From: a phage
Reading direction: 5' to 3' (one strand)
Length of the DNA stretch: 46,134 nt
Sequence record: PZ379182.1
Position numbers and translations under genes: made by a program. Positions 5,160 to 19,731 of this stretch are shown piece by piece. The notes beneath the pieces are model-generated. The model worked only from the letters and a program-made list of their open reading frames with translations, was not told the origin of the DNA and searched no databases. Each line of letters begins with the position of its first letter. Position 1 is the stretch's first letter.

Positions 5160-5393
5160 TTAATCCTCCATCGTGAATGATTTGTTGGCGATAATGTCTT
5201 GAGACTTCTGGTTTTTACGGTGTGTGATTCTCAATGGGGCACGGAATAGATGTGCATTTGTCATAATCATTCTAGCATTACGCAATCTGCCAATTCTGAA
5301 TGCCTCAGTCCTGTTCTCGATGTGTGTTGAGCAGAAACGCCTTCCATTTAACAGAGCAAACGCGATGGTCTGATTCAGGGAAGAATGTTTCAT
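5160..5393 (-). CDS. hypothetical basic protein
   Basis: 77-aa ORF; start overlaps helicase stop; Arg-rich, could be spurious. Confidence 0.3.
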   Translation of the reverse strand: MKHSSLNQTIAFALLNGRRFCSTHIENRTEAFRIGRLRNARMIMTNAHLFRAPLRITHRKNQKSQDIIANKSFTMED

Positions 5394-7159
5394 AAGCTCG
5401 GAATCTTATCTCCACTATGAGCCATAACCTCATATGAAGCAACAATCCCTGACTGGTTCTTTGTTAACCCAATCTTGAAGTCATAAACTCGCAACCAGTC
5501 CCCCTTACGATACATTTTTCCTGATAACTTAGCATTCGGGTCTATGAGCATCTCACCACAGCATCTGCAATTCTTAGCTGCAATATCATTCTTCTCACCG
5601 CATCCTTTCTTAATGATAGCTTTGGTCTGTGGGTCCGCTATATCTTCACACAGTCTAAACTGAAAGAAGTGCTCACAGCGCTTCCAGTCAATTACGTTAT
5701 TGCAGCGCCTGGCTAATGGAGAGTTCACATAAGAGCATACCTGACAGATTCTTGGCTCATCACCACGCTTTCTTGCTGACCTAAATTTCTGGTCTTGTAC
5801 CTCTTCTATAATTGGGTCGAAGTAAAGTTCAGCCATATCATCAAGCGTTCCAGCAAAATCAAGAACAACATGGTCATCTTTTACCATTCCAGCTTCTTTG
5901 TGCTTCTTCTTAAGGATACGCATACCACGACCAAGCAACTGAATGAGTAGAGTAATGCTACCAACCTTCCTCAGGATAATGCTTGTATCCCACGGGGGGC
6001 AGTTTACGCCAGTTGTGAGGCAACCAATCTGAAATATGAACTTATATTCTCCGTTGGCTGCTTTCTCAAGTATCTCCCTACGCTTTTTCTCACCTGTAGA
6101 GTCAGTAACTATGGCCCAAGTAACACCTTTAGGTAGCGCGCTCAGCCGCTTCAATCACAATGCTGTTTTCCAGCGCAAGTTACCAATGCAGCATTCCTTG
6201 TTTCCATAAACTTAGCAGCAAATCCCATTATCTTTTGTGTCATCGTTTGGTTTTCGTGAATCTTTGCAGCCATCGCATCCATTTCTTTCTTGCTGAAGTC
6301 CTTAACCCCATCACTTCCATCAGGAGTGAACTCACTAAGGTCGTAGCCCAAATCACCAACTTCACCGTAGACAGTAGGAACAACGAACCCCAAGTCAACA
6401 AGGTAGCTGGTTGGCACTTGCATTACAGTTTTGCGCCAGAATCCACGGACATTTGGGTTACTAACTACAATGTGGTCGTTGTTACGGTACGGGCTACCAG
6501 TTAACCCAAAGATACGAAGTTCGCGACCGTACTTCTCCTTGCATCGACGCTTCATTTCGGTAATGATTAACGTGTATTGCGCGCGACCAGTGCCAAGCAA
6601 GCCCGGTATTCACACCATCCTTAAAGACCATCTCACCCTTCTTCGTGCTCATCTGCTCGAATGTTTCCTCATTCTCTTCAGCTTCTACGATATCCATATG
6701 GTCAACCATATGACATTCATCTATCGCAATAACGGCAGGAACATAGTCACCAAGGCCCTTAAACAAGCCGTTAGCAGCTGTGCCCTCACTAGCCACTATG
6801 GTTGGGTAGTAAACTGATTTAACGTTAAGGCCAGCGCAATAGACGCTATTACGGATGCCGAAGTTACGAAGCTCTTCTGAGTTCTGGCTGATTATCTCTG
6901 ACTGGCGAGAAAGAACCATATAAGGAAGCCCAAGCTGCTCCATGCGCTTACCAATCATAGCAAGAATAATTGTCTTACCCGCAGACACCGAGAGGTCTGC
7001 GATAAATGGGGCCTCGTACTTTCCAATAGCCTTTCCGATTGCATCAAATGTCACGCACTGGAACTCGTAAGGTGTTATCTCTCCAAACTGATAATCTTTC
7101 TGAATCTGTTTAATTCTTTCTTTATCGAAATTTGCAACCAGCTTCTCGATAGGCAACAT
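5390..7159 (-). CDS. superfamily-2 DNA helicase (DEAD/DEAH-box type); reading frame interrupted twice
   Basis: Track ORFs 6494..7159 (motif I SVSAGKT, motif II DECH), 6151..6600 (LTGSPYR, motif IV-like ALVTCAGKQH) and 5390..6154 (motif V TTGVNCP, motif VI QLLGRGMR) are consecutive parts of one helicase in different frames; the two downstream track ORFs begin at TTG right after stops in their own frame. Confidence 0.7.
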
Positions 7160-7260: not shown

Positions 7261-7743
7261 ATGAGCGCAATTGACAAGCGAACCATTAACGGTAACAACG
7301 GAACAGTCCGCACCGAAGACAAAAAGCAACGGAAACGACCTTCAGGTTACTACGTTTTAAAAGATGAAGTAAGAGCCGGACTACGCGCACGGCTTGAGAT
7401 GATCCTTGATTTCTTCGGCACAAAGGCAAATATCGCAAAGCAGTTAAAGGTGACACCTCAGGCTGTAGAAGAATGGTTTAAGCGTGGGATGATTTCTGCG
7501 CGTGGCGCTCAGTTGTCGCACAACTACTATAAGCGAAATGGAGAAGGTTTTCGCGCTACATTCTGCCGACCAGATCTGCAATTCGACGGTAACGGGAAAC
7601 CGCTAACTCTACGTTGCAAGAAGCGTCATATGCTGCGTGTTGTTACTGAGGCTGAGCTAGCAACTAAACCAGAGTGTCGCTCATGGCGCAAGATTAAGGC
7701 CGCTAACGAAGCAGCACGAAAAGATAAAGAGCAAGGGAAATAG
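7261..7743 (+). CDS. helix-turn-helix DNA-binding protein (Cro/YdaS-like putative transcriptional regulator)
   Basis: 160 aa; segment TKANIAKQLKVTPQAVEEWFKRG typical of a Cro/CI-type HTH. Confidence 0.6.
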   Translation: MSAIDKRTINGNNGTVRTEDKKQRKRPSGYYVLKDEVRAGLRARLEMILDFFGTKANIAKQLKVTPQAVEEWFKRGMISARGAQLSHNYYKRNGEGFRATFCRPDLQFDGNGKPLTLRCKKRHMLRVVTEAELATKPECRSWRKIKAANEAARKDKEQGK

Positions 7744-7808: not shown

Positions 7809-8735
7809 ATGAGTCACCATGATAAGAGCGAAGTGATAGCAAAAATGAAGGGAATGTGGGGCGAATTCTACTCATCGAACCTTGGATGGACAAAGGAGAA
7901 TCTCAGCAAGAAACATGGTCCGTGCCCTTACTGCTTTGGCAGGGATAGGTTTCGCTTCACTGATGAGTTAGGTCAGGAAAAGGGAAATGGCGCAGCAATA
8001 TGCAACCAGTGCGGAAATGATTCTGGTGTTGGCTGGGTTATGAAATGCTCGGGAATGAGTTATAGCGAAACAATAGATACGCTTGGTGATTGGCTGAATC
8101 TCGTTCCAGTAGAGGTTATATCAAAAGCAAACAAAAGAGCATCTCGTACATCACCATACAAAATTGGCGCCAAGATTGATCACGAAAGATGCTTAGAGAT
8201 AATGGAAAGGACGGAAAGAGTAGAATTAACTCCGCTCAGTACATACGAGGGTATCTATAGCGAATTTGGTTTTGATGTTGGCAGGACGAAATCAGGCGAA
8301 CTAATACACGCAGTACCGTGCTTTATGGCTTATAGTGACGGCATATCAGATGATATGTGCAATGTAATGTTTATCAATGAAGATGGAGATGTTAGCTATG
8401 CTGCAAAAGATTATACTCGCCAGTCTGTTTCTATTATTGGCACCTTTAAAGATGATGAGTACGCTTATCTGGTCGATAATTGGATTGATGGTGTTCGCGT
8501 TCATCTTGCTACTGGAAATCGCTGCGTGCTTGTTTGCCACTCCAGCTACAACATGGAAATGGTTGCTTATGCGCTTAGGAACTACAAGTTACGCGTCGCT
8601 TGTACTCGCAACTCTTTTGATTTACTTGCCGTTGCTGACGATCGCAATCTTGATATTGTAATTCCAAATGATGGTAATTTTTTCAAGTCAGGCATAAGAA
8701 AGAGAATATACAAGGCAAACGAATTACTAGACTAA
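7809..8735 (+). CDS. DNA primase (zinc-ribbon plus Toprim-like domain)
   Basis: Track ORF 7773..8735; ATG at 7809 preceded by GGAGG; zinc-binding CPYCFGRDRF...CNQCG followed by primase-like core. Confidence 0.7.
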   Translation: MSHHDKSEVIAKMKGMWGEFYSSNLGWTKENLSKKHGPCPYCFGRDRFRFTDELGQEKGNGAAICNQCGNDSGVGWVMKCSGMSYSETIDTLGDWLNLVPVEVISKANKRASRTSPYKIGAKIDHERCLEIMERTERVELTPLSTYEGIYSEFGFDVGRTKSGELIHAVPCFMAYSDGISDDMCNVMFINEDGDVSYAAKDYTRQSVSIIGTFKDDEYAYLVDNWIDGVRVHLATGNRCVLVCHSSYNMEMVAYALRNYKLRVACTRNSFDLLAVADDRNLDIVIPNDGNFFKSGIRKRIYKANELLD

Positions 8736-8756
8736 CCTCCTTCGGGAGGTTTTTTT
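8736..8756 (+). terminator. intrinsic terminator
   Basis: CCTCC-TTCG-GGAGG hairpin followed by TTTTTTT right after the primase stop. Confidence 0.75.
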
Positions 8757-8822
8757 ATACCTGAAAGATGATACAATCCACTTTAGCAATTAGTGCTACT
8801 TTACAAATGGAGACTTTACACA

Positions 8823-11351
8823 ATGGCAATTTATGACTTAGGAACAGCGTCGCTAGCCGCAAATGGCGAGGTTACTGGCGTCGGGACAACATGGAAAGCA
8901 CCACTTACACTTATTCGTGTAGGTGCAACCATTATTTTTAAAACCAGTCCACTTAAAATTTATACCATCTCTGAAATCATCAGCGACACTCAGATTAATG
9001 TTTACAACCCTAATTCTGAAACTGTTCCTGCCGGAACTGGTTACGCGATTCTTGCTCACGATGGCATTACCGTTCAGGGTTTAGCTCAGGATGTTGCTGA
9101 GACTCTGCGTTACTATCAGTCAAAGGAGACTTCTATTGAAAGTTTGCTGCAATTTATCGGGCAAGATAATTTCGATTGGCCTCGCTTCGAGCAATTAGCA
9201 AACCAATCAGTAACAGGGGCTGCCGAGTCTTTAGCTAGCCAGATTGCTGCCGCAGAGAGCGCCGCTACTGCCGTTAGCGCAAGGGATACAACCACATCAG
9301 CGAGAGATGCTACTATTGAGGCAATTAATAGTGCTGGTGATGCTGGCACAATGGTAACTCTTGCCAATATGGGTATCGGTGGCTCGCTTACACCTCAGTT
9401 GACAGAACTTGACTGGAATACGTTTGATTTCAAATCAGGAGCTAGATACCTATGCCAAAAGTCAGCAATGATCAACGCTCCAGAGGTGATAAATATAACC
9501 TACTCCGATAGCACGCTTTGTGCGATTGAGGTTAAGTCAGCAAGGGGGATTACTGGTGTTAAGAACATACAAGTGTCAGCATCAACCGGATCCGATAATA
9601 CGTACAGGTTGATTGATTTAACTCAGACTGGCACGGCACCAAACAAAACTTACTATTCAAGAGAGGCTCTTTATGTCGCATCAGGAAGTCAGGTTGGCGG
9701 CGCTAGCGCCCAGCGAGTAAGAGGCTTGCTTGATGTTTACTCAAAAAATGAGACTTTTCAAAAATCATTGAATTTATCTGATGTTGCAGATAAAGCAAAA
9801 GCAAGAACCAACCTTGATGTTTACTCAAAGAGCGAATTATCATCAATTTTAAATACAGATTCAAAAAGCACATCAAGCTATAGCGGCTCAATATCTTCAG
9901 CAATAGAAGCCGCTGGCGATGGCGGGTCGGTAGTTATAAGCCCGGGAACTTATGAGAGTAATAACTACTCCTTTGCTGGCAGGAACATATCAGGCTCTGG
10001 ATATAATACCGTAATAAGTGTTAAACCTTTTGAAACCGGACTCACCTCAACGCTATCGGTTCCGCACTGGAGGCAAAAGCATTTATCGGATTTGCAGTTT
10101 ACAGGTACTGCAATACAAGGTAATAACGGCTTTCAATTCCCGGATGACCCTTATGCTGGAAGGGTTGTATTGGATAGGCTTTACTTCAATGACCTGGATG
10201 TTGGTATAAGGAAAAATGCTGGCAACATTGGAAATACCTACAGAAACGTAAGTATTAGAAATGCGAATTACGGGTATCGAGCAAAAGCTCATGACGAAAT
10301 GCATATAGGAGCGGACACTTTATACGGATACCACTCAGATACAATCTCTCAATATTCAGTAATGCTAGATGCGACAAGCACAAGTAGCGCAACGAACCCT
10401 GGCGCTGGAGGAATTGGTGGGTGGTGGATTAGGGATTCAATAATGGAGGCCTCTGCTGGCGGCGGTATAAGGTTAAAGAATAAACCTGGAGATTGCCCAA
10501 CATCACCTTGCGGATTGTCTAACGTATGGTTTGAAGCGATAGCAACTGGTGGGGCAATTAACGTAGGTGAGGGAGCTGAACTCCCAAGGGTTTTGAAGCT
10601 CATCGATACGTCCGTTTTCTTTGCTGAGCATTCTTATATTAATAACATTGAGTTATCAAATTCAAACCTTGTAACTTATGGGTGCAGGTTTGATAACGCT
10701 GATGGGCACCAAAGTTTCTCTCTTGATTCGAACAGTATTATTTTTGCTAAGGATGCATACCTGAATGGCTCTTCAACATCAAACGTTATAGTTGAGTCAC
10801 TGGTATCACAGACAGCCAAGATAACGGGTACATCTGACTTATCTGTTAGAGGATATGTTACTAAAGGTCGAGTTTTTAACCCTGATTCCGGAACTGTTTT
10901 AGTAAGGAGGCCTTTTGGTACTGGTGGGAACAACTTTGGTGGAACAGGGTCGGCAAGTGAAGGTTCTGATACAAGGGGTATACACTCGCAATCATCTGGA
11001 TACTACGAATTGGCTGGTGCGGCTCAGTACGAATTGATAAATGGTGGCTTTAATATAACTTCCGGCAAATGGTATGCTTGGGGTATTTCTGCAAACAGGA
11101 TTCAAGGCGGTGCTGATGGTATTATAAACATTTTTGGTAGCGCATCATTAGGAACTGTATTCACAGAAGCTGGTAAGTGGGTTCATACATTTGGCGTTGG
11201 TAAGGCTTCGGTTTCTGGCGTTGCAAACCTTAACATTAACCTCAATGGATTAACTGGTATGGTATTAAGCCTTGCTGATTATTTTGTTGTAGAATTTGAT
11301 AATCAAAGGGACGCCTTGATATTTGCAAACTCAAGAGTTTCTCTTGCATAA
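8823..11351 (+). CDS. tail fiber / tailspike protein with candidate enzymatic central domain
   Basis: Track ORF 8793..11351; ATG at 8823 (MAIYDLGTASLAANGEVTG...); Gly/Ser/Thr/Asn-rich repetitive beta-type sequence typical of fibers; enzymatic domain is inferred, not shown. Confidence 0.65.
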   Translation: MAIYDLGTASLAANGEVTGVGTTWKAPLTLIRVGATIIFKTSPLKIYTISEIISDTQINVYNPNSETVPAGTGYAILAHDGITVQGLAQDVAETLRYYQSKETSIESLLQFIGQDNFDWPRFEQLANQSVTGAAESLASQIAAAESAATAVSARDTTTSARDATIEAINSAGDAGTMVTLANMGIGGSLTPQLTELDWNTFDFKSGARYLCQKSAMINAPEVINITYSDSTLCAIEVKSARGITGVKNIQVSASTGSDNTYRLIDLTQTGTAPNKTYYSREALYVASGSQVGGASAQRVRGLLDVYSKNETFQKSLNLSDVADKAKARTNLDVYSKSELSSILNTDSKSTSSYSGSISSAIEAAGDGGSVVISPGTYESNNYSFAGRNISGSGYNTVISVKPFETGLTSTLSVPHWRQKHLSDLQFTGTAIQGNNGFQFPDDPYAGRVVLDRLYFNDLDVGIRKNAGNIGNTYRNVSIRNANYGYRAKAHDEMHIGADTLYGYHSDTISQYSVMLDATSTSSATNPGAGGIGGWWIRDSIMEASAGGGIRLKNKPGDCPTSPCGLSNVWFEAIATGGAINVGEGAELPRVLKLIDTSVFFAEHSYINNIELSNSNLVTYGCRFDNADGHQSFSLDSNSIIFAKDAYLNGSSTSNVIVESLVSQTAKITGTSDLSVRGYVTKGRVFNPDSGTVLVRRPFGTGGNNFGGTGSASEGSDTRGIHSQSSGYYELAGAAQYELINGGFNITSGKWYAWGISANRIQGGADGIINIFGSASLGTVFTEAGKWVHTFGVGKASVSGVANLNINLNGLTGMVLSLADYFVVEFDNQRDALIFANSRVSLA

Positions 11352-11380
11352 AAAAAGCCCCGAAAGGGGCTTTATCTTTT
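11352..11380. terminator. bidirectional intrinsic terminator between convergent tail fiber and SSB genes
   Basis: AAAAAAAGCCCCGAAAGGGGCTTTATCTTTT; hairpin flanked by A-run and T-run. Confidence 0.75.
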
Positions 11381-11381
11381 A

Positions 11382-11837
11382 TCAGAATGGAATATCTCCG
11401 TCGAATGTGTTTTGCTGTTGTTGTTGTTGTTGTTGCTGTTGATGTTGTTGTTGCTGTTGATGTTGCGGTTGATGGCGCTGTTGTTGCTCTGTATTTTTAT
11501 GTTGCTGTGCACCCTCACCACGCTGACTAAACTCAAGACGAGGATTGTTCATGTTAATTGTTATGTAAGTCTTGCCATCTTTATCTCGAACATCTAATGC
11601 TAACGTCTCACAACTTACGCTAACAATCTTCCCTTCCTGAAACGCTTCGTTATACCATGTAAGCATTGATTCCTTTGCGAAGAAGACGGCACGATAGTTG
11701 CTATACTGAGATTGACCATCTTTATCCTTGTAACGCTCACTTAAATCAACCGCGTACATCTTCCAACTGCCATTTGCATTCTGACCTTCTTTAGTGAACG
11801 GAGCGCGACGGATAACACCAGTGATTACATGACTCAT
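11382..11837 (-). CDS. ssb: single-stranded DNA-binding protein with glutamine-rich linker
   Basis: 151 aa; OB-fold-like N-terminus, C-terminal acidic tail DGDIPF, poly-Q/H linker. Confidence 0.85.
   Translation of the reverse strand: MSHVITGVIRRAPFTKEGQNANGSWKMYAVDLSERYKDKDGQSQYSNYRAVFFAKESMLTWYNEAFQEGKIVSVSCETLALDVRDKDGKTYITINMNNPRLEFSQRGEGAQQHKNTEQQQRHQPQHQQQQQHQQQQQQQQQQNTFDGDIPF
11412..11495. repeat. CAG/CAA trinucleotide repeat tract encoding the SSB poly-glutamine linker
   Basis: Plus strand reads (TTG/CTG)n continuously over about 80 nt. Confidence 0.8.
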
Positions 11838-11877
11838 TTTCTTTCTCTCTTAATGTTGGGGCCGCAGCCCCGTTAAA

Positions 11878-12528
11878 TTAGAATGTGTCGATTTCTTGAG
11901 ATTGTACTTCAACTTTTTCTTCTTGAACAGACTTTTGTGCAACCTGTTTAGGTTTTGCAGGATTGAAGCCGTTAGTTGCATTAGCCTGAATTTCTGCCTT
12001 ACGCTCAATGATGTGAGGTTCAATCACCAGCCAACCAGCTGAATCAAGAGACTGCTTAGCTTCTTTGTATACATCACGCAGGTCATCAAGAGTGTTGCAC
12101 TTAGCTAAATCTTTCTTAAATGAGTTGATACCCTTAACTGCAAGCTGACCATCATCATCTGCCTGGCTCAAGCCTAATGCCGCTGTAATTGCATAACGGC
12201 GAGCATATGTAAGTGATGAGCCGTAACCTTGAGCATCTTGCTTGCTGATTGGGACGATTGTCAGGAAGCTGACCCACTCTCCAGATTCTGCATGATAGAC
12301 AGTTGTTTCAACCTTAATTCTAGTTGTGGCTTCATCATCAATCATGCCTTGAAACATGACCAGGCCGCTATCTGCAAGGCCAGGCTCTACAGCCGCCAGT
12401 ACGTCTTCCAGGGTGGCGTACCTGTTCTTTAGGTGCGAGTTCTGCTTTGACTTTTCAGCCTTTGCAAACTTTGATTTGGCCTCAAATAAAGCCTTCAATA
12501 CTTGCTTGTTTTGATCTGAAGTTTTCAT
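11878..12528 (-). CDS. erf: ERF-family single-strand annealing recombinase
   Basis: 216 aa; conserved core with GYGSSLTYARRYAITAALGL motif; located with exonuclease and SSB. Confidence 0.7.
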   Translation of the reverse strand: MKTSDQNKQVLKALFEAKSKFAKAEKSKQNSHLKNRYATLEDVLAAVEPGLADSGLVMFQGMIDDEATTRIKVETTVYHAESGEWVSFLTIVPISKQDAQGYGSSLTYARRYAITAALGLSQADDDGQLAVKGINSFKKDLAKCNTLDDLRDVYKEAKQSLDSAGWLVIEPHIIERKAEIQANATNGFNPAKPKQVAQKSVQEEKVEVQSQEIDTF

Positions 12529-12539
12529 TAACTATCTCT

Positions 12540-12606
12540 CTTTCGTTTCAGTGGGGAAATCATACCTCACCTTTTGATTTTGTCTTTAGCAATTAGTGCT
12601 ATTTTA
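12540..12606 (-). promoter_or_regulatory. intergenic cassette copy between exonuclease and ERF genes
   Basis: Minus strand AAATAGCACTAATTGCTAAAG ... CCCCACTGAAACGAAAGAGAG; motif contains the exonuclease stop codon. Confidence 0.6.
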
Positions 12607-13570
12607 GAAGTTCTTGATACTGCTTACTTACCCACTCAGGAATCATCAAATCTTGCTCTGTAATCCCATTGCTATACCCAGGCCATACATCAAGCTCCTT
12701 GCACTGTTTGTATGTTGCTAGTGCCTCACAATATTGTAAACGACCAATGCGAAGCTGTTCATCTGTAAGCGTGTAGCTCATTGGTAAGTAAGGCTCCGTT
12801 TTTTCCTGCGCCAGAAGTCGAGCCACAACCTTACGCTTCTCGTTAAATGTCTTCACGAACAAGTCACGCTGAAGGCTCATTTTGCACAGGTATCCATGGT
12901 CATAAGCTGACTTGCCAAATCCTCTCGGGCTTGCGTCCGCCGTCGTCTTGTAGTCAGTAATGAAAACCACGCCATCAACAACATCCACGTGATCAAGCCT
13001 AACCTTAACACCACACCCAAGAATCTCACCAAAGATTGATAGCTCTTTCTGTGCTGTTGGTGAGTTAATAATCGCATCGTAAGCTGGGATATTAGTCAGA
13101 ACCTCGCGCATTGAGATTACCTTATCGTAATCTTTCGCAGTAACGAGCTCTTTGCCACTAATTAACGCCTCAGCGCTCTCCTGCTGCTCAATTAACCATT
13201 TAACAGGCCAATCCTCACCAGATTTATACATCATCTCCACGAGCTCGCTATATCCCTTACCTGACGTGCCTGAAACTCCAACTTTTTTAAGCGCTGCGGA
13301 TAAAGCCGTTTGGCTAGTAATCAATCCTTCCACTTCGTCAAAGTCAGTAGCTCGCATGTATGTTGAGTCAAATACCTCGCGCTCTAGCATCATGCAGTGA
13401 CTTAGTGTGCCAAATTTAAGTGCTGCGCTAGAGTTGCTGCGCTGCTTAAATTTCCATTTTGCTGGAGAAGTAGCAAGAATCTCAGCCAGCGAAGAGCCAG
13501 AGATATGGTCTTTCTCTTCGTGATAGGCTTCATTGGTTAGCTCGTCGTTCGTATAAACTTTAAATGTCAT
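12599..13570 (-). CDS. recombination exonuclease (PD-(D/E)xK, RecE/YqaJ-like)
   Basis: 323 aa; D...D/E..K-type motif region (VRLDHVDVVDGVVFITDYKT); synteny with ERF and SSB. Confidence 0.6.
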   Translation of the reverse strand: MTFKVYTNDELTNEAYHEEKDHISGSSLAEILATSPAKWKFKQRSNSSAALKFGTLSHCMMLEREVFDSTYMRATDFDEVEGLITSQTALSAALKKVGVSGTSGKGYSELVEMMYKSGEDWPVKWLIEQQESAEALISGKELVTAKDYDKVISMREVLTNIPAYDAIINSPTAQKELSIFGEILGCGVKVRLDHVDVVDGVVFITDYKTTADASPRGFGKSAYDHGYLCKMSLQRDLFVKTFNEKRKVVARLLAQEKTEPYLPMSYTLTDEQLRIGRLQYCEALATYKQCKELDVWPGYSNGITEQDLMIPEWVSKQYQELLK

Positions 13571-15067: not shown

Positions 15068-15313
15068 ATGACTAACTTAATCAAACTTTCAATCATCGCA
15101 GCAGCAGCAATCATGATGGTGGGTTGTTCTTCTGCTCCGCGTCCTGACGGATGGTGTGCAACGCAAGCAAACGGCGTGTGCGTGGCTAAATGGGAAAATG
15201 GTGTGGTTGTACCGTCTGGTGAAGTTGATGTGCGATACGCTGGTATTGAGAGCAAGGCTGGCGGCGGTTACGGTGGCTCTGTTGCTGACCATGGGTCTAA
15301 GGAGTGGAAATAA
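15068..15313 (+). CDS. small lipoprotein, Cor-like superinfection-exclusion candidate
   Basis: 81 aa; signal peptide with lipobox MVGCSS; T1/phi80-type phages carry a small lipoprotein cor gene near tail genes. Confidence 0.5.
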
Positions 15314-16275
15314 TGCCTCAAGGAATATTGATTGACCTTAATGATGGAAGGCCACCTATGGAAATAACGGCAGGATTAAGAGCACCCGCTGTGACTGGCT
15401 CAATAAATACCAATGGACTTTCGACGCCAGCATCATCATGGGATTTTGGTTTAACCATGTCCCCAGGCTCAACAGCATTCTGCCTTCCAACAAAGGCTGT
15501 GCACGTTGACGCTTATGATGTTGTACCTGAAGTTTATTATATGAACGGGTTCCAGAAGGTAAATGACGGAACTGGCAGGATAAAACTTAGTAACTTCAAT
15601 GGCGCAAGAGGTCGTATAATTGACTTTGCTGGCAATTGCTTTGAGATACTAGCTGCTTCATCCTCTTCAAGCCCGGGCATACTTGTTGAGAACTCAACTG
15701 ACTTCCTGGCAATTTCAAGTAATTCGCGGTTAATGTCTGCGGCGTGGGTTGGTGGAATCCAAGTTAACGGCGCGGCTTCACTTCCAGTTAGCGGAGTTCC
15801 GTTTGGTAAGTGGGATAACCCAGGAGTTTCTCTGGAGAGCGACGGGAGCACAATTTGGTGCCGAAATATAAACTACACTGGTACAGATGACGTGGCGGCA
15901 AGCACTTACGTGCAACTGGTGATATTCAGAAACGAACCGCCGATAGCTGGACCCGGGCTTACAATGTCTAACAGCTTGGGCCAGATTGTCTTTTCCAGCG
16001 TTAGGCGACCGTTTGTGCTTGGTGGCTTTATACAAATGACTAACGGTTTCCAGTCAATAAATGGTGGATTCTTCCCACTACTTAGGTGTGGAGCTACAAC
16101 AAGGGTTACTGGAGGGTATAACAACTTAAGATACAAAGGCATATGCATGTCTGGCGGCGCCGTAAGGGCCGTTCCAGGGACTGTAATAGGTAACTACTCA
16201 ACGCAGACGGGAGCCCAATTCCCATTCGACACAAACATATCAATGGCTCTACCATTCATACCAAACTTCTACTAA
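15313..16275 (+). CDS. hypothetical Gly/Ser/Thr-rich beta-type protein (possible tail- or receptor-associated)
   Basis: Track ORF 15304..16275 begins at GTG; ATG at 15313 overlaps the cor-like stop and follows AAGGAG; composition resembles fiber proteins. Confidence 0.45.
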   Translation: MPQGILIDLNDGRPPMEITAGLRAPAVTGSINTNGLSTPASSWDFGLTMSPGSTAFCLPTKAVHVDAYDVVPEVYYMNGFQKVNDGTGRIKLSNFNGARGRIIDFAGNCFEILAASSSSSPGILVENSTDFLAISSNSRLMSAAWVGGIQVNGAASLPVSGVPFGKWDNPGVSLESDGSTIWCRNINYTGTDDVAASTYVQLVIFRNEPPIAGPGLTMSNSLGQIVFSSVRRPFVLGGFIQMTNGFQSINGGFFPLLRCGATTRVTGGYNNLRYKGICMSGGAVRAVPGTVIGNYSTQTGAQFPFDTNISMALPFIPNFY

Positions 16276-16305: not shown

Positions 16306-19300
16306 TTACCACACTCCAACTACAACCCTTCCACCATTCGGTAAATTAACTGTAATTCCATTATTGTTAATCTGAACAGTGTTGTTGGTTCCGTTAAACG
16401 CAAAGTTGCCGTTACTTGCGTACAGACTACCCCTTACAGTTGCATTGTTAAGTTCCGCACTGCCTGACTTATCAATGGCCCAACCCTGAGAACCAGCCAC
16501 GTAGTTATTAGATTGAATCCGGTTACCAATCTTCGCGTTAGTGATTGAACCATCCTGAATCACTGCGCTTTGAATGAATACCTGATTACCTTCAACTACG
16601 AAAGGCAATGACCACTGACCGGATCCAGAGCTAATGCCGTTACTGATTGCGAACCTGTTAGCATCGAAAATGAACTGACTACGAACGTTGCCACCAGATC
16701 CGGTTAGTTCCATGCTCATCCCTGAATTGTACTCAACCCCATTGTAAGTAAGACCCAGCTTAATGCCGTACTGCGCACCAATTGAATCAGCTGTAACGTA
16801 AGTATCCAGCTTCTCATTTAAAGCAGCTTCATTCTCACCGAGCCTTGCAGATAAAGCAGTGTCCGCAGTGGTCCTTGCTTGCGTTTCTTCCGCTAGCGCC
16901 GTATCAATCCTTGTCAACGAAGCCACAATCTCATCATCAATCTGCGCTTTAAGCTGCGTCAGAGCCTCTACGCGAGCCCTTTCTTCATCGGCGATAAGAT
17001 TCACAGCCTGAACAAATTCGGCCTTCCTCTTGCCGTTTTCCTTCGTCATTCTACGCACGTCACCATCATTAGCCAGGGCGTTCTCAATTATTGATTCCGC
17101 TTGCGCCTGAATAGCTCCGTTTGACTCAATGGCATTCTGTTGGAGATACTTGAACCCATCTGAGTTTTCTATATCAACCTTAATATCACCAATGATTGAC
17201 GACACATCATCGCTTGCCATACCCCTTACAAAATCAGTCCATGGTGAGACGTTACCAATCTTGTCAATCAGTCGCGCCCTGTACCAGATAACCTTTCCTG
17301 CCGGTAATGTAGTGTGCCAATACTCGTAACCCGGGTAAGGAACTAGCGTTAACAAACTGGCGTTCTCTGGTGAGTAAGTACCATCACCATTGTCGGCTAC
17401 TTGCTGCAATTCAGTGTATGACGTATCGGCTGAGTTTTCAGGGAAACCCCACTTAACCCTAATGCCAAATATTTCATCATCTGAAGCTGTGATTACCGTA
17501 GGCTCAGACGGCGTTCCAATTTTACCAGTTAGGCTTACTGAAACAATGTCAGACCATGCGGATACGTTTTCAGTATCAGAAACGGCCCTTACGCGAACCT
17601 GGTAAATTCCGGCATAGATACCTTCAATATCAACCTCTGTGCTTGCTGTGCGCGGCACGTTAATCCAGTTTCCGTTCTCCTTGCGCCACTGGACCGTGTA
17701 GGTTTTCGCGTACTGAACCTTGTCCCACGTGATTACCATTGTCTCAACTGATAAACCCTGAACAACCTTACTGTAACTGCTAACCTGAACATTCTCGGGT
17801 GCCAGTAATGTATCTGGCTCCACGATTGAAGTTGGCCTATCCTGAATGTTTACGCCGTAATCAATTTCGTCGTATTTATTCGGGTCGTACTCGACTGCCG
17901 TAATGCTGTAACCGAACGCATCGTCTCCATCGCTGTCTGCTTTTTGAATCCCGGTCACAACATATTGCTGAAGAGCAAGATTTTCCTTATCAATCGCAAA
18001 TACTGTGTCAGGCTGAGGAGTAAAGCTAAACGCTGTATTAAGTTGCAGCGTCATACCATCTTCAGATACAGATGCAATGGTCCTGTACTCTGGCATTCCA
18101 TCAGGCTTGTTTATTAGAATCCTGTCGCCAGCAGTAGCATCAATCTTAAATGGCACAAAAACTTGCAACCCACTTACTGACTCGATACGACCAGAAAGGT
18201 TAAGGGTGTAGTTGCTAGACCATGCCTGGTCATTAACTGCAATAACCTCACCAATCATTGGAATCATACCTTCCAGACCAGTAGTGAAACTAATAGTCTC
18301 GCTGCGAATGTTCGTCTTTAATAACCAGCGCCCTCGGCGGTTTGCCTCACTCCTGCGAGTACATCCAATAGCTGTAAGGTCGACCGGGTTGTAACCAAAA
18401 CGCCTTGTTGCCTCTAACTCGAATACTGGCTCAACATCCTGTTGGTATGAGTTTTCAACGTCATCAAACTGAACGTTGGCAACCGTGTAAAGTGACTTAT
18501 CGCTACCAAATGTACGGTTGAACAATCCATCAACAACGTTGTCATTGGTGAATACGTACGATGGTTGACGCGGCTTATCGACAACAATCCCTATCTGCTC
18601 GCCGTCATAGAATGTCAGCCCACGGAAGATAGAGCAAATATCACGGATTACCTGATATGCTTCAACTTTCTGCTGAATGACAACATCACACAGGTAGCGC
18701 GGCTCAACTCCACCCTTACCATCTGGAACCATCTGGTCACAGAATTGCGCCGCCTCATACAGACCCCACTTATCAATAGTAATGCCAAGCTCTCGCTGGT
18801 CAAGTCCGTAACGCTGATTCGTCACCAAGTCGTAAAGAACCCACGCCGGGTTATTGGAATACGCCATCTTAAAGGTGCCGTTCCAGGTTCCGCTGTAAGT
18901 CCTTGTCTCTGGGTTGTAGTTAGTTGGAACGCGAATCAACTTCCACTTCTTCTTGATTGAAATCGTCGGGATTCCGTTAGGGAAGAGGTCAGAACTGAAC
19001 TCAACGTAAACCAGCGCTGTAAGTGGGTAGCGGAATTTAGCATCAATTACTTCCTGATAGGTCGTAATTTGCATGTCGTTAACCAGCGTCGAACTTTCTG
19101 AATATGCCGTGATCTTACGAACCCTCACCAACGCACTCGAGAACTCAGCAGGAAGGTTAACCCTGATACTTCTGTCGTACCCGCTAGTTGTCTTGCCATT
19201 AGCTACTCCGCGCGTGTACTCAGTGTATGTAGCGCCATCAACGGACAGGTCAATCGCATACTCGCAAGTGGTACCGTTAAGATCTCCGTTACTTTCCTGA

Positions 19301-19731
19301 TTAATCAGACGAGGCCAAAACAGCTTAACCCTAATCGCTGATAGCTGGGTGTTATTAACAGCAATGATGTAAGGAGTTGAGTTTTTAATCTCCCTGTTCA
19401 CTTGCACTTCCGAGTTAGCACCCTCTAGCCCGGCAATGTAATCCTGACTCTGTGTGCCAGGGCGAAACTCTGCCGTTACACCCTCGTAGTTGTATGTGCC
19501 ATTCTGGTTCTGTACAGGAACGTCAGCAAGGTAAAGGTCCTTTAGGGAGAATGAGCTATCAACCTCACCATCAGAAACAGCTAGCAAAACCTTAACCTTG
19601 TTTACGGATATCAGGTTATCAGGCTGCTCTACAGGTTGGTGCTGCTTTGGCTGTCCGCCCTTACTTCCATAAATCTTAATTTCTTCCGCCATATCACATA
19701 GCTCCGCATTTGTTTTGACCATTTGTGCCAT
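16306..19731 (-). CDS. central tail fiber / host specificity protein, lambda J-like
   Basis: 1141 aa; segment YSGTWNGTFKMAYSNNPAWVLYDLVTNQRYGL closely parallels lambda J; last gene of an M-L-K-I-J-like series. Confidence 0.9.
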   Translation of the reverse strand: MAQMVKTNAELCDMAEEIKIYGSKGGQPKQHQPVEQPDNLISVNKVKVLLAVSDGEVDSSFSLKDLYLADVPVQNQNGTYNYEGVTAEFRPGTQSQDYIAGLEGANSEVQVNREIKNSTPYIIAVNNTQLSAIRVKLFWPRLINQESNGDLNGTTCEYAIDLSVDGATYTEYTRGVANGKTTSGYDRSIRVNLPAEFSSALVRVRKITAYSESSTLVNDMQITTYQEVIDAKFRYPLTALVYVEFSSDLFPNGIPTISIKKKWKLIRVPTNYNPETRTYSGTWNGTFKMAYSNNPAWVLYDLVTNQRYGLDQRELGITIDKWGLYEAAQFCDQMVPDGKGGVEPRYLCDVVIQQKVEAYQVIRDICSIFRGLTFYDGEQIGIVVDKPRQPSYVFTNDNVVDGLFNRTFGSDKSLYTVANVQFDDVENSYQQDVEPVFELEATRRFGYNPVDLTAIGCTRRSEANRRGRWLLKTNIRSETISFTTGLEGMIPMIGEVIAVNDQAWSSNYTLNLSGRIESVSGLQVFVPFKIDATAGDRILINKPDGMPEYRTIASVSEDGMTLQLNTAFSFTPQPDTVFAIDKENLALQQYVVTGIQKADSDGDDAFGYSITAVEYDPNKYDEIDYGVNIQDRPTSIVEPDTLLAPENVQVSSYSKVVQGLSVETMVITWDKVQYAKTYTVQWRKENGNWINVPRTASTEVDIEGIYAGIYQVRVRAVSDTENVSAWSDIVSVSLTGKIGTPSEPTVITASDDEIFGIRVKWGFPENSADTSYTELQQVADNGDGTYSPENASLLTLVPYPGYEYWHTTLPAGKVIWYRARLIDKIGNVSPWTDFVRGMASDDVSSIIGDIKVDIENSDGFKYLQQNAIESNGAIQAQAESIIENALANDGDVRRMTKENGKRKAEFVQAVNLIADEERARVEALTQLKAQIDDEIVASLTRIDTALAEETQARTTADTALSARLGENEAALNEKLDTYVTADSIGAQYGIKLGLTYNGVEYNSGMSMELTGSGGNVRSQFIFDANRFAISNGISSGSGQWSLPFVVEGNQVFIQSAVIQDGSITNAKIGNRIQSNNYVAGSQGWAIDKSGSAELNNATVRGSLYASNGNFAFNGTNNTVQINNNGITVNLPNGGRVVVGVW

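Follow-up and report, generated by a model that had tools for sequence, protein, structure and literature searches.

The window analysed here is a 46,134-nucleotide stretch of phage DNA (sequence record PZ379182.1) in which a long gene for a fiber-like protein stands apart from the tail operon. What this protein is, how it would be held on the virion and what it recognises on the host are the questions raised by the locus. With approximately 91% identity to ES and AN_ECEAS, two Braunvirinae phages, the window comes by sequence from a Braunvirinae-like, T1-like E. coli phage of the Drexlerviridae. The best explanation of the locus as a whole, which we hold to be very likely, is that it encodes the side tailspike of a T1-like coliphage, in which an anchor found family-wide is joined to a swapped-in beta-helix domain that recognises glycans.

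The gene directly follows the primase gene and lies on the strand opposite to the tail operon, which includes the J-type central fiber. The genes for SSB, Erf and exonuclease VIII lie downstream on the minus strand and are convergent with it. The order regulator-primase-tail fiber-SSB-Erf-exonuclease VIII is identical in AN_ECEAS and vB_Ec-G8. In E. coli Drexlerviridae the lateral tail fiber locus has recombination and primase/helicase genes as its neighbours and is conserved at its 5' end only (Maffei 2021). The present gene lies between primase/helicase and recombination genes, apart from the tail operon, and carries an exchangeable distal part behind a conserved 5' end. The preliminary description was correct about the strand, the primase upstream and the neighbouring replication genes. 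Its view of a gene encoded outside the tail module holds for the position but not as an oddity, as this is the canonical lateral tail fiber locus of all Drexlerviridae. Because it sits at the usual locus the gene is real but ordinary; for a tail spike gene, a position amid the replication genes is a recognised trait of these phages, and no new question arises from it.

A single long open reading frame (ORF) in the ORF list of the window spans 8793/8823..11351 on the plus strand. A chance ORF is ruled out by the 742 homologs of the protein (E<=1e-3) and by its matches to two PHROG tail fiber families, phrog_24092 over aa 1-371 (E 2.5e-162) and phrog_27367 over aa 253-842 (E 6.5e-137). The coordinates first proposed for the gene correspond to an ATG start and 842 aa and are retained. 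The length quoted with them, 852 aa, requires the GTG at 8793 and was discarded, since that codon lies within the conserved intergenic region (terminator to promoter-like TGnTACAAT). The position of the GTG, the GGAG upstream of the ATG and the annotation of the same ATG in AN_ECEAS and vB_Ec-G8 make the ATG at 8823 the likely translation start. The exact protein sequence is absent from a collection of 15 billion proteins, in which the nearest entry is 99% identical. Its body, initially described as Gly/Asn/Ser-rich, is so only moderately (G 10.7%, S 11.3% and N 6.7% of the whole protein); in the beta-helix part the three residues together make up approximately 33%. The features of the locus are collected in Table 1.

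Table 1. Coordinates of the tail spike gene, the domains of its protein and the neighbouring features in the window
Feature	Position	Strand	Residues	Remarks
Primase	7812-8735			phrog_510; directly upstream of the tail spike gene
Intrinsic terminator, hairpin AACCTCCTTCGGGAGGTT then a run of 7 T (T7)	8734..8751	+		Terminator scan
Promoter-like extended -10, TGATACAAT (TGnTACAAT)	8769..8777	+		Direct sequence reading
Shine-Dalgarno GGAG	8809..8812	+		10 nt upstream of ATG 8823
Lateral tail spike / tail fiber gene	8823..11351	+	842 aa + stop	
N-terminal virion-anchor domain	8823..9176	+	aa 1-118	Conserved across Drexlerviridae
Ala-rich long helix	9177..9368	+	aa 119-182	AF2 helices 119-170 and 174-182
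Variable middle beta domain	9369..9722	+	aa 183-300	AF2 all-beta
Junction with two LDVYSK motifs	9723..9857	+	aa 301-345	DVYSK at aa 304 and 332
Right-handed parallel beta-helix	9858..10982	+	aa ~346-720	C-terminal boundary approximate
C-terminal beta-rich domain and short terminal helix	10983..11348	+	aa ~721-842	Boundary approximate
Bidirectional terminator hairpin AAAGCCCCGAAAGGGGCTTT	11354..11373	.		Common to the convergent tail spike and SSB genes
J-type central fiber	16306-19731	-		

The gene would form a transcription unit of its own, set off by the upstream terminator, the extended -10 promoter and the bidirectional terminator downstream, and embedded in the replication/recombination region as across Drexlerviridae. 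The upstream terminator ends the regulator/primase unit and divides the early genes from the tail spike gene. Its stem is kept in AN_ECEAS and vB_Ec-G8 and the loop alone varies. The extended -10 element is likewise kept in both relatives; it is without a good -35 and is the putative promoter of the tail spike gene.

The N-terminal part accounts for the probable attachment of the protein to the virion. The first 150 aa have tblastn matches in 901 phage records, those listed being mostly 44-57 kb in size and annotated as T1-like, so that the anchor that had looked conserved from the letters alone is in fact conserved. Residues 1-181 match the PDB chains 7VYV/7VZ3/7LZJ of Depo32 and DpK2 at E~1e-34. 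This homology, phrog_24092 and the 901 records are those of an anchor of the Drexlerviridae lateral tail fiber locus. The anchor was modelled at a pLDDT of 30-45 in the full-length AF2 monomer and is unusable there. The N-terminal anchor part is unmodelled in the DpK2 structure, and 751 of the 928 residues are present in the Depo32 chain 7vz3_A. The long helix that follows the anchor is 26.6% Ala. In the homologous N-terminal region of DpK2, which is a trimer, the chains form a triple-helical bundle, and the long helix of the present protein is presumably one strand of a trimeric bundle of this kind. The protein would presumably be a homotrimer, with the conserved N-terminal ~120 aa docking the spike on the tail tip and the Ala-rich helices forming a triple helical stalk.

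After the stalk the model places a variable small beta domain and then a linker with a duplicated LDVYSK motif, and it is here that the mosaic structure of the gene is evident. The middle domain is all-beta at aa ~190-285 (AF2 pLDDT ~85-93) and has no PDB match at E<=10 with a 17-sequence profile and no Pfam match in the sub-segment scan. It is 97-100% identical to vB_Ec-G8 and 30-60% identical to AN_ECEAS. Identity to these relatives switches at aa ~150, ~300 and ~340; the first 972 nt of the gene have 99% nucleotide identity to vB_Ec-G8, and the whole protein has 86% amino acid identity to AN_ECEAS. On these comparisons the allele is a recombinant with 5' 972 nt of the vB_Ec-G8 type and 3' 1.5 kb of the ES/AN_ECEAS type. 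The LDVYSK motif is kept in nearly all N-terminal homologs, whose C-terminal parts fall into five or more Pfam types. Because the C-termini of the homologs diverge past the motif and the identity switches there, we place the crossover of anchor half and receptor-binding half at this junction. The middle domain, which is exchanged independently, could offer a further site for docking or glycan binding and so provide dual recognition.

A beta-helix had been suggested for the central region, and structure prediction bears this out. The AF2 model (pLDDT 89) is a right-handed parallel beta-helix whose fold matches the K2-2, CBA120 TSP2 and Sf6 tailspikes at E~1e-8 in Foldseek, and the tail fiber of ES17 ranks first in BFVD (E 2.5e-56). 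The best structural matches are to enzymatically active tailspikes, and capsule depolymerases are among the fold matches. The pectate-lyase-like domain that had been proposed as a check did not appear in Pfam, where the tail spike protein has no match to Beta_helix (PF13229) or Pect-lyase_RHGA_epim (PF12708) even at E<=10; a 36%-identical homolog (P0172) scores 24.9 bits against PF13229, for which the cut-off is 25.9. Neither Pfam nor NCBIfam returned a significant match for the full-length protein or for three of its sub-segments. When the protein alone was compared with PDB sequences, the N-terminal anchor was all that matched, and a profile built from 48 sequences of the C-terminal family picked up no more than the homologs' foreign anchors and the first Sf6 rung. 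The beta-helix itself is covered by no Pfam, NCBIfam or PDB sequence match, and given the negative Pfam search the fold is visible only via structure and distant homologs.

These homologs are widely distributed. Over 94% of its length, the C-terminal module of ~470-500 aa shares 46-48% identity with the RBPs of LM33_P1 and ES17, and its identity to Kagunavirus tailspikes (Golestan, phiEc3/4, fFiEco03) is in the same range; its homology to phrog_27367 extends over all ~500 aa. Further homologs are encoded by P22-like prophages in E. coli, Citrobacter and Salmonella. Anchors of the P22, T7, SP6/CBA120 and tail-collar types occur in front of the module. In homologs that are 45-47% identical the anchor is Head_binding (PF09008, known from the P22 tailspike), Tail_spike_N (PF18668) or the T7 tail-fibre N-terminal domain (PF03906), and one at 30% identity bears a tail-collar anchor (PF12571). 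A polar ladder of R447, K464, N468, H494, D498, E542, W569, E571, D624 and D635 is conserved. Among 84 representatives at 21-47% identity E571, which lies in a VWFE motif, is 100% conserved, and E542, one rung away, is 89% conserved with Q in the remainder. Conservation is 96% for R447, 95% for W569, 94% for N468, 89% for H494, 81% for D635 and 73% for D498. The C-terminal domain has longer strands and a helix at 828-837 in the AF2 models, conserves W786, F825, A831 and N836, and is probably a trimerisation or glycan-binding cap. A self-cleaving chaperone at the C-terminus was rejected because the protein has no match to PF13884 (Peptidase_S74), which is found in some N-terminal homologs (e.g. 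P0027 and P0055).

The distal ~500 aa, comprising the beta-helix and its C-terminal cap, would bind the surface polysaccharide of the host and probably cleave it, with a putative groove lined by E542 and E571 as the candidate active site. This enzymatic activity is predicted from the conserved acidic/polar ladder. An adhesin that binds the glycan reversibly without cutting it is an unlikely alternative. The ES17 tail fiber, a biochemically studied relative, binds heparan sulfate, and neither depolymerase activity nor cleavage of bacterial glycans was detected for it; the present protein and its sub-segments are without a catalytic Pfam signature, and many O-antigen-dependent phages use non-enzymatic fibers (BASEL 2025). 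However, an invariant E571 together with near-invariant E542, H494, R447 and N468 at such low identity suits a catalytic site over a variable binding surface, and the enzymatic nature of the best structural matches argues in the same direction, as do the homologs behind P22-type Head_binding anchors, since the solved tailspikes with such an anchor (P22 endorhamnosidase, Sf6) are enzymes.

The target glycan is most likely O-antigen, which is favoured over capsule. A capsule (K-antigen) depolymerase is suggested by the anchor shared with proven Klebsiella capsule depolymerases, by the capsule depolymerases among the fold matches and by the isolation of phage ES10 (GenBank OR466728, Escherichia phage ES) on uropathogenic E. 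coli, which is often capsulated; no halo or receptor data were found in the ES10 literature. The Klebsiella enzymes, however, share the anchor only and not the receptor-binding module, whose nearest counterparts belong to LM33_P1, a phage with a described specificity for O25b strains, and which also has relatives in the P22-like prophages. P22-like tailspikes classically target O-antigen. [quoted passage not shown]

Modification of the glycan by an esterase or deacetylase, or a lyase in place of a hydrolase, is very unlikely. It is suggested by weak pectinesterase-like matches, one reported for ES17 at E 7e-3 and others in the PDB at E 0.13-0.21 when the family profile was used. The PDB matches were rejected as non-significant and are limited to the N-terminal cap motif of the helix, and the conserved pair E542 and E571 resembles the acid pairs that are a feature of tailspike hydrolases.

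On the preferred reading of a glycan-cleaving tailspike, glycan binding would be the reversible primary-receptor step, and penetration of the glycan layer would allow the J-type central fiber and its partner to reach the terminal outer-membrane receptor. The ~500-aa module may define a glycan-processing tailspike family without biochemical or structural characterisation, recognised by the invariant Glu571 (VWFE), the near-invariant Glu542 and at least five unrelated virion-anchor types. This reading, under which the copy in this phage would have a new O-antigen specificity and, separately, the middle domain could hold a second site, we regard as less likely than not. Which E. coli strains, smooth or encapsulated, the phage can reach is likely determined by the spike. 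The practical value is modest. The LDVYSK junction offers a natural cut-and-paste point for host-range engineering of T1-like phages. The module family is widespread and has among its relatives the LM33_P1 and ES17 proteins, which are directed at the pandemic ST131 lineage; it has no solved structure or defined chemistry, and knowing the structure and substrate of even one member would be of use.

Among known systems, the lateral tail fibers of E. coli Drexlerviridae (BASEL Bas01-Bas13, Maffei 2021) have the same locus, with a conserved 5' end and a variable remainder. The depolymerases of Klebsiella Weberviruses, including KP36 gp50, belong to the same phage family and are likewise encoded in the replication/recombination region, but the KP36 gene follows SSB and the present gene follows the primase. 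DpK2 (RAD2, 7LZJ) and Depo32 (GH-K3, 7VYV/7VZ3) are homologous in the anchor and helical stalk; past aa ~181 they have no sequence similarity, and the middle domain and LDVYSK junction are unaligned. The P22, Sf6 and HK620 tailspike endoglycosidases and CBA120 TSP2 have only 10-13% identity and TM-scores of 0.3-0.44. The module is homologous to those of the LM33_P1 (Kayfunavirus; ST131-O25b:H4 E. coli) and ES17 (75-kb podophage; ST131 E. coli) RBPs and of Kagunavirus and P22-like prophage Head_binding tailspikes, all in phrog_27367, with 45-48% identity across this RBP group and wholly different virion anchors (T7-type, Tail_spike_N and P22 head-binding). The sequence divergence of ~52-55% suggests a glycan specificity that differs from the LM33_P1/ES17-type relatives, and at ~46% identity the O25b specificity of LM33_P1 is doubtful here. 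The nearest known proteins are the tail fibers of ES/AN_ECEAS and vB_Ec-G8. In the present spike the anchor and middle domain are of the G8 type and the beta-helix is of the ES type, a combination found in neither relative, and the spike is a new recombinant allele of a kind of protein that is already known.

A single long ORF on the + strand (window 8793..11351) encodes the lateral tail spike. It is plainly a gene because it has 742 homologs at E<=1e-3 and matches two PHROG tail-fiber families (aa 1-371, E 2.5e-162; aa 253-842, E 6.5e-137). The preliminary description gave 852 aa from position 8823; that length is reached only from GTG 8793, and ATG 8823 gives 842 aa. The ATG is favoured as the start because of the upstream hairpin, the -10-like element, the GGAG, the 87-nt spacer that is almost invariant in the related phages AN_ECEAS and vB_Ec-G8 (the hairpin loop is the only difference), and the annotation of the same ATG for the homologs in both records. 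The -10-like element is a candidate promoter for the gene.

Features of the tail spike locus and protein (window coordinates)
Feature	Window position	Strand	Residues	Remarks
Transcriptional regulator	7261-7743	+
Primase	7812-8735	+
GC-rich hairpin with T-run	8734-8751			Directly after primase stop; terminator scan
TGATACAAT, extended -10-like element	8769-8777			3' of hairpin; read from sequence
GGAG	8809-8812			Upstream of ATG 8823
Anchor			1-118	Conserved in 901 phage records
Stalk			119-182	Ala-rich long helix
Middle domain	9369-9722		183-300	Small beta domain, pLDDT ~85-93
Junction			301-345	Two LDVYSK motifs
Beta-helix (predicted)			~346-720
C-terminal domain			~721-842	Beta-rich, short helix at end
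Bidirectional hairpin	11354-11373			Between tail spike stop codon and convergent SSB gene
SSB, Erf, exonuclease VIII	11382-13570	-
Methyltransferase				Listed between exonuclease VIII and phrog_1265 gene
phrog_1265 membrane protein	15304-16275	+	323 aa	Adjoins J gene, opposite strand
J-type central tail fiber	16306-19731	-		Followed by remaining tail operon, - strand

By sequence the window is a Drexlerviridae coliphage; its first 25 kb align over 93% at 90.9% identity to the Escherichia phages ES and AN_ECEAS, both members of the Braunvirinae. Annotation of the neighbouring genes bears out the layout described earlier, with the spike on the opposite strand from the tail operon and near replication genes. 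The implied oddity of this position does not hold. The gene order is the same in AN_ECEAS and vB_Ec-G8, and in Klebsiella phage KP36 the homolog gp50 lies in the same replication/recombination block, opposite J. Maffei et al. 2021 described the locus in 13 Drexlerviridae between conserved recombination and primase/helicase genes, with conservation in the main fiber gene limited to its extreme 5' end.

Several other features of the region were observed. The phrog_1265 gene beside J occupies the site that the BASEL work assigns, in small siphoviruses, to the genes for superinfection exclusion and for the terminal-receptor RBP. It may determine which terminal receptor the phage uses. AN_ECEAS (L001) carries an insertion of ~1.1 kb in the helicase region (L001 2777-3916, against window ~6714) and an HNH endonuclease gene beside exonuclease VIII, both absent from the window. 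Measured against vB_Ec-G8, whose 664-aa helicase is intact, the replicative helicase gene (5163-7159, -) is split into at least 4 frame segments: aa 1-187 and aa 339-593 fall in frame -2, aa 186-335 in frame -3 and aa 605-664 in frame -1. The breaks may stem from frameshift errors in sequencing or assembly, or mark a pseudogene; in the case of errors, further small ORFs of the window could suffer from them too. The SSB gene (11382-11837, -) contains a long poly-glutamine/histidine tract, QQQRHQPQHQQQQQHQQQQQQQQQQ, directly before the acidic C-terminal tip DGDIPF.

The tail spike consists of six parts. Its anchor occurs in phages of Klebsiella, Escherichia, Shigella, Salmonella, Citrobacter and other hosts. 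Weak similarity of aa 3-98 (window 8823-9116) to the lambdoid 'tail fiber' genes of HK140, HK542 and HK446 (33-37% identity, E 1e-8 to 8e-11) hints at a docking mode shared with lambda-type side tail fibers. The middle domain exists in several variants among homologs, is exchanged independently, and was without match in PDB and Pfam sequence searches; it may serve as a second glycan-binding site, a docking platform or a spacer. The junction is kept in nearly all anchor-bearing homologs, and the sequences downstream of it diverge.

This modularity is evident in the allele itself. Protein identity to vB_Ec-G8 is 97-100% over aa 1-150 and aa 151-300 and 17-40% over aa 361-750; the corresponding values for AN_ECEAS are 90-100%, 30-60% and 100%. 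DNA identity to vB_Ec-G8 and AN_ECEAS is 99.1% and 84.0% over nt 1-450, 99.4% and 56.0% over nt 451-972, and 92.4% and 79.3% in the adjacent primase gene; the 3' ~1.5 kb is 94.4% identical to AN_ECEAS. Because its first 972 nt are closer to vB_Ec-G8 than the neighbouring primase is, the allele is, on these identities, a recent recombinant with the crossover within the LDVYSK junction.

The beta-helix suggested earlier for the central region is confirmed as a predicted fold by AlphaFold2, Foldseek and BFVD. The AlphaFold2 model of aa 302-842 (48-sequence alignment; mean pLDDT 89.0, pTM 0.84) is all-beta from aa ~347. Fold matches of this distal module include a putative pectin lyase, Geobacillus virus E2 ORF18 (27.9), mannuronan epimerases (27.0-27.2), CBA120 TSP2 (26.3-26.5), the KP32gp38 K21 (25.3) and K64-1 S2-4 (25.1) depolymerases, Depo32 (24.9) and the HK620 tailspike (21.7). 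Foldseek ranked the K2-2, CBA120 TSP2 and Sf6 tailspikes highest (E~1e-8, probability 1.0), with TM-scores of only 0.3-0.44, as expected because the compared helices differ in length. In BFVD the ES17 tail fiber came first (E 2.5e-56), ahead of many phage proteins of the 'pectate lyase superfamily'. Sequence searches of curated families and solved structures found none covering the beta-helix; the suggested check for pectate-lyase-like profiles was negative in Pfam. Action as an esterase or lyase is very improbable.

An exhaustive HMMER search for relatives of the distal module returned 203 representative proteins at E<=1e-3. Across 84 of these (21-47% identity), E571 is conserved in 100%, R447 in 96%, W569 in 95%, N468 in 94%, E542 (remainder Gln) and H494 in 89%, K464 in 88%, D635 in 81% and D498 in 73%. 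E571 lies 29 residues, about one helix rung, from E542. The pattern fits a candidate active-site groove. The ES17 tail fiber is reported to bind heparan sulfate, with depolymerase activity not detected; set beside the conserved residues, an adhesin that binds only seems unlikely.

The reading with the best support makes the protein a trimeric side spike, binding O-antigen and probably cleaving it. The family-wide anchor would dock the trimer, the beta-helix would engage host O-antigen as a reversible first step, and the J-type tip would thereby gain access to its outer-membrane receptor. Maffei et al. 2021 proposed O-antigen as a primary receptor for the fiber at this locus. The fold matches include capsule-type depolymerases such as KP32gp38; a capsular target is nevertheless rather doubtful.

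The tail spike is an ordinary finding, and the preliminary description was right except for the implied positional oddity. A tailspike built on a beta-helix follows a textbook design, the annotation of close homologs already reads tail fiber protein, and the locus position and modular evolution are published. Specific to the window are one recombinant allele and its membership in a widespread, biochemically uncharacterised receptor-binding family.

Two public records carry host labels that look doubtful (MZ417522.1 and PP134917.1). One, of 25 kb and named as Mycolicibacterium phage J1, contains the enterobacterial tailspike module at 48% identity. The other is named as Pseudomonas phage PsgS01F; its match to the window has coordinates and a score near-identical to those of E. 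coli phage UALMA_PCEc3, and it shares that phage's length of 44,679 bp.

Residues 1-181 match chains of the Klebsiella depolymerases Depo32 (7VYV/7VZ3) and DpK2 (7LZJ) at E~1e-34; the homologous region of DpK2 forms a triple-helical bundle and could not be modelled. A search with aa 341-842 alone recovered the distal module, at 45-47% identity, fused to P22-type Head_binding (PF09008), Tail_spike_N (PF18668) or the T7 tail-fibre N-terminus (PF03906), and one 30%-identical relative carries tail-collar PF12571; the sequences with these other anchors come from E. coli, Citrobacter and Salmonella. In deposited phages the module reaches 46-48% identity with the RBPs of LM33_P1, a Kayfunavirus whose described target is the ST131-O25b:H4 complex, and of ES17, which targets ST131 strains as well; with myPSH1131; and with a group of siphoviruses of 44-45 kb, among them Golestan, phiEc3/4 and fFiEco03, in whose records the gene is annotated as a tailspike.
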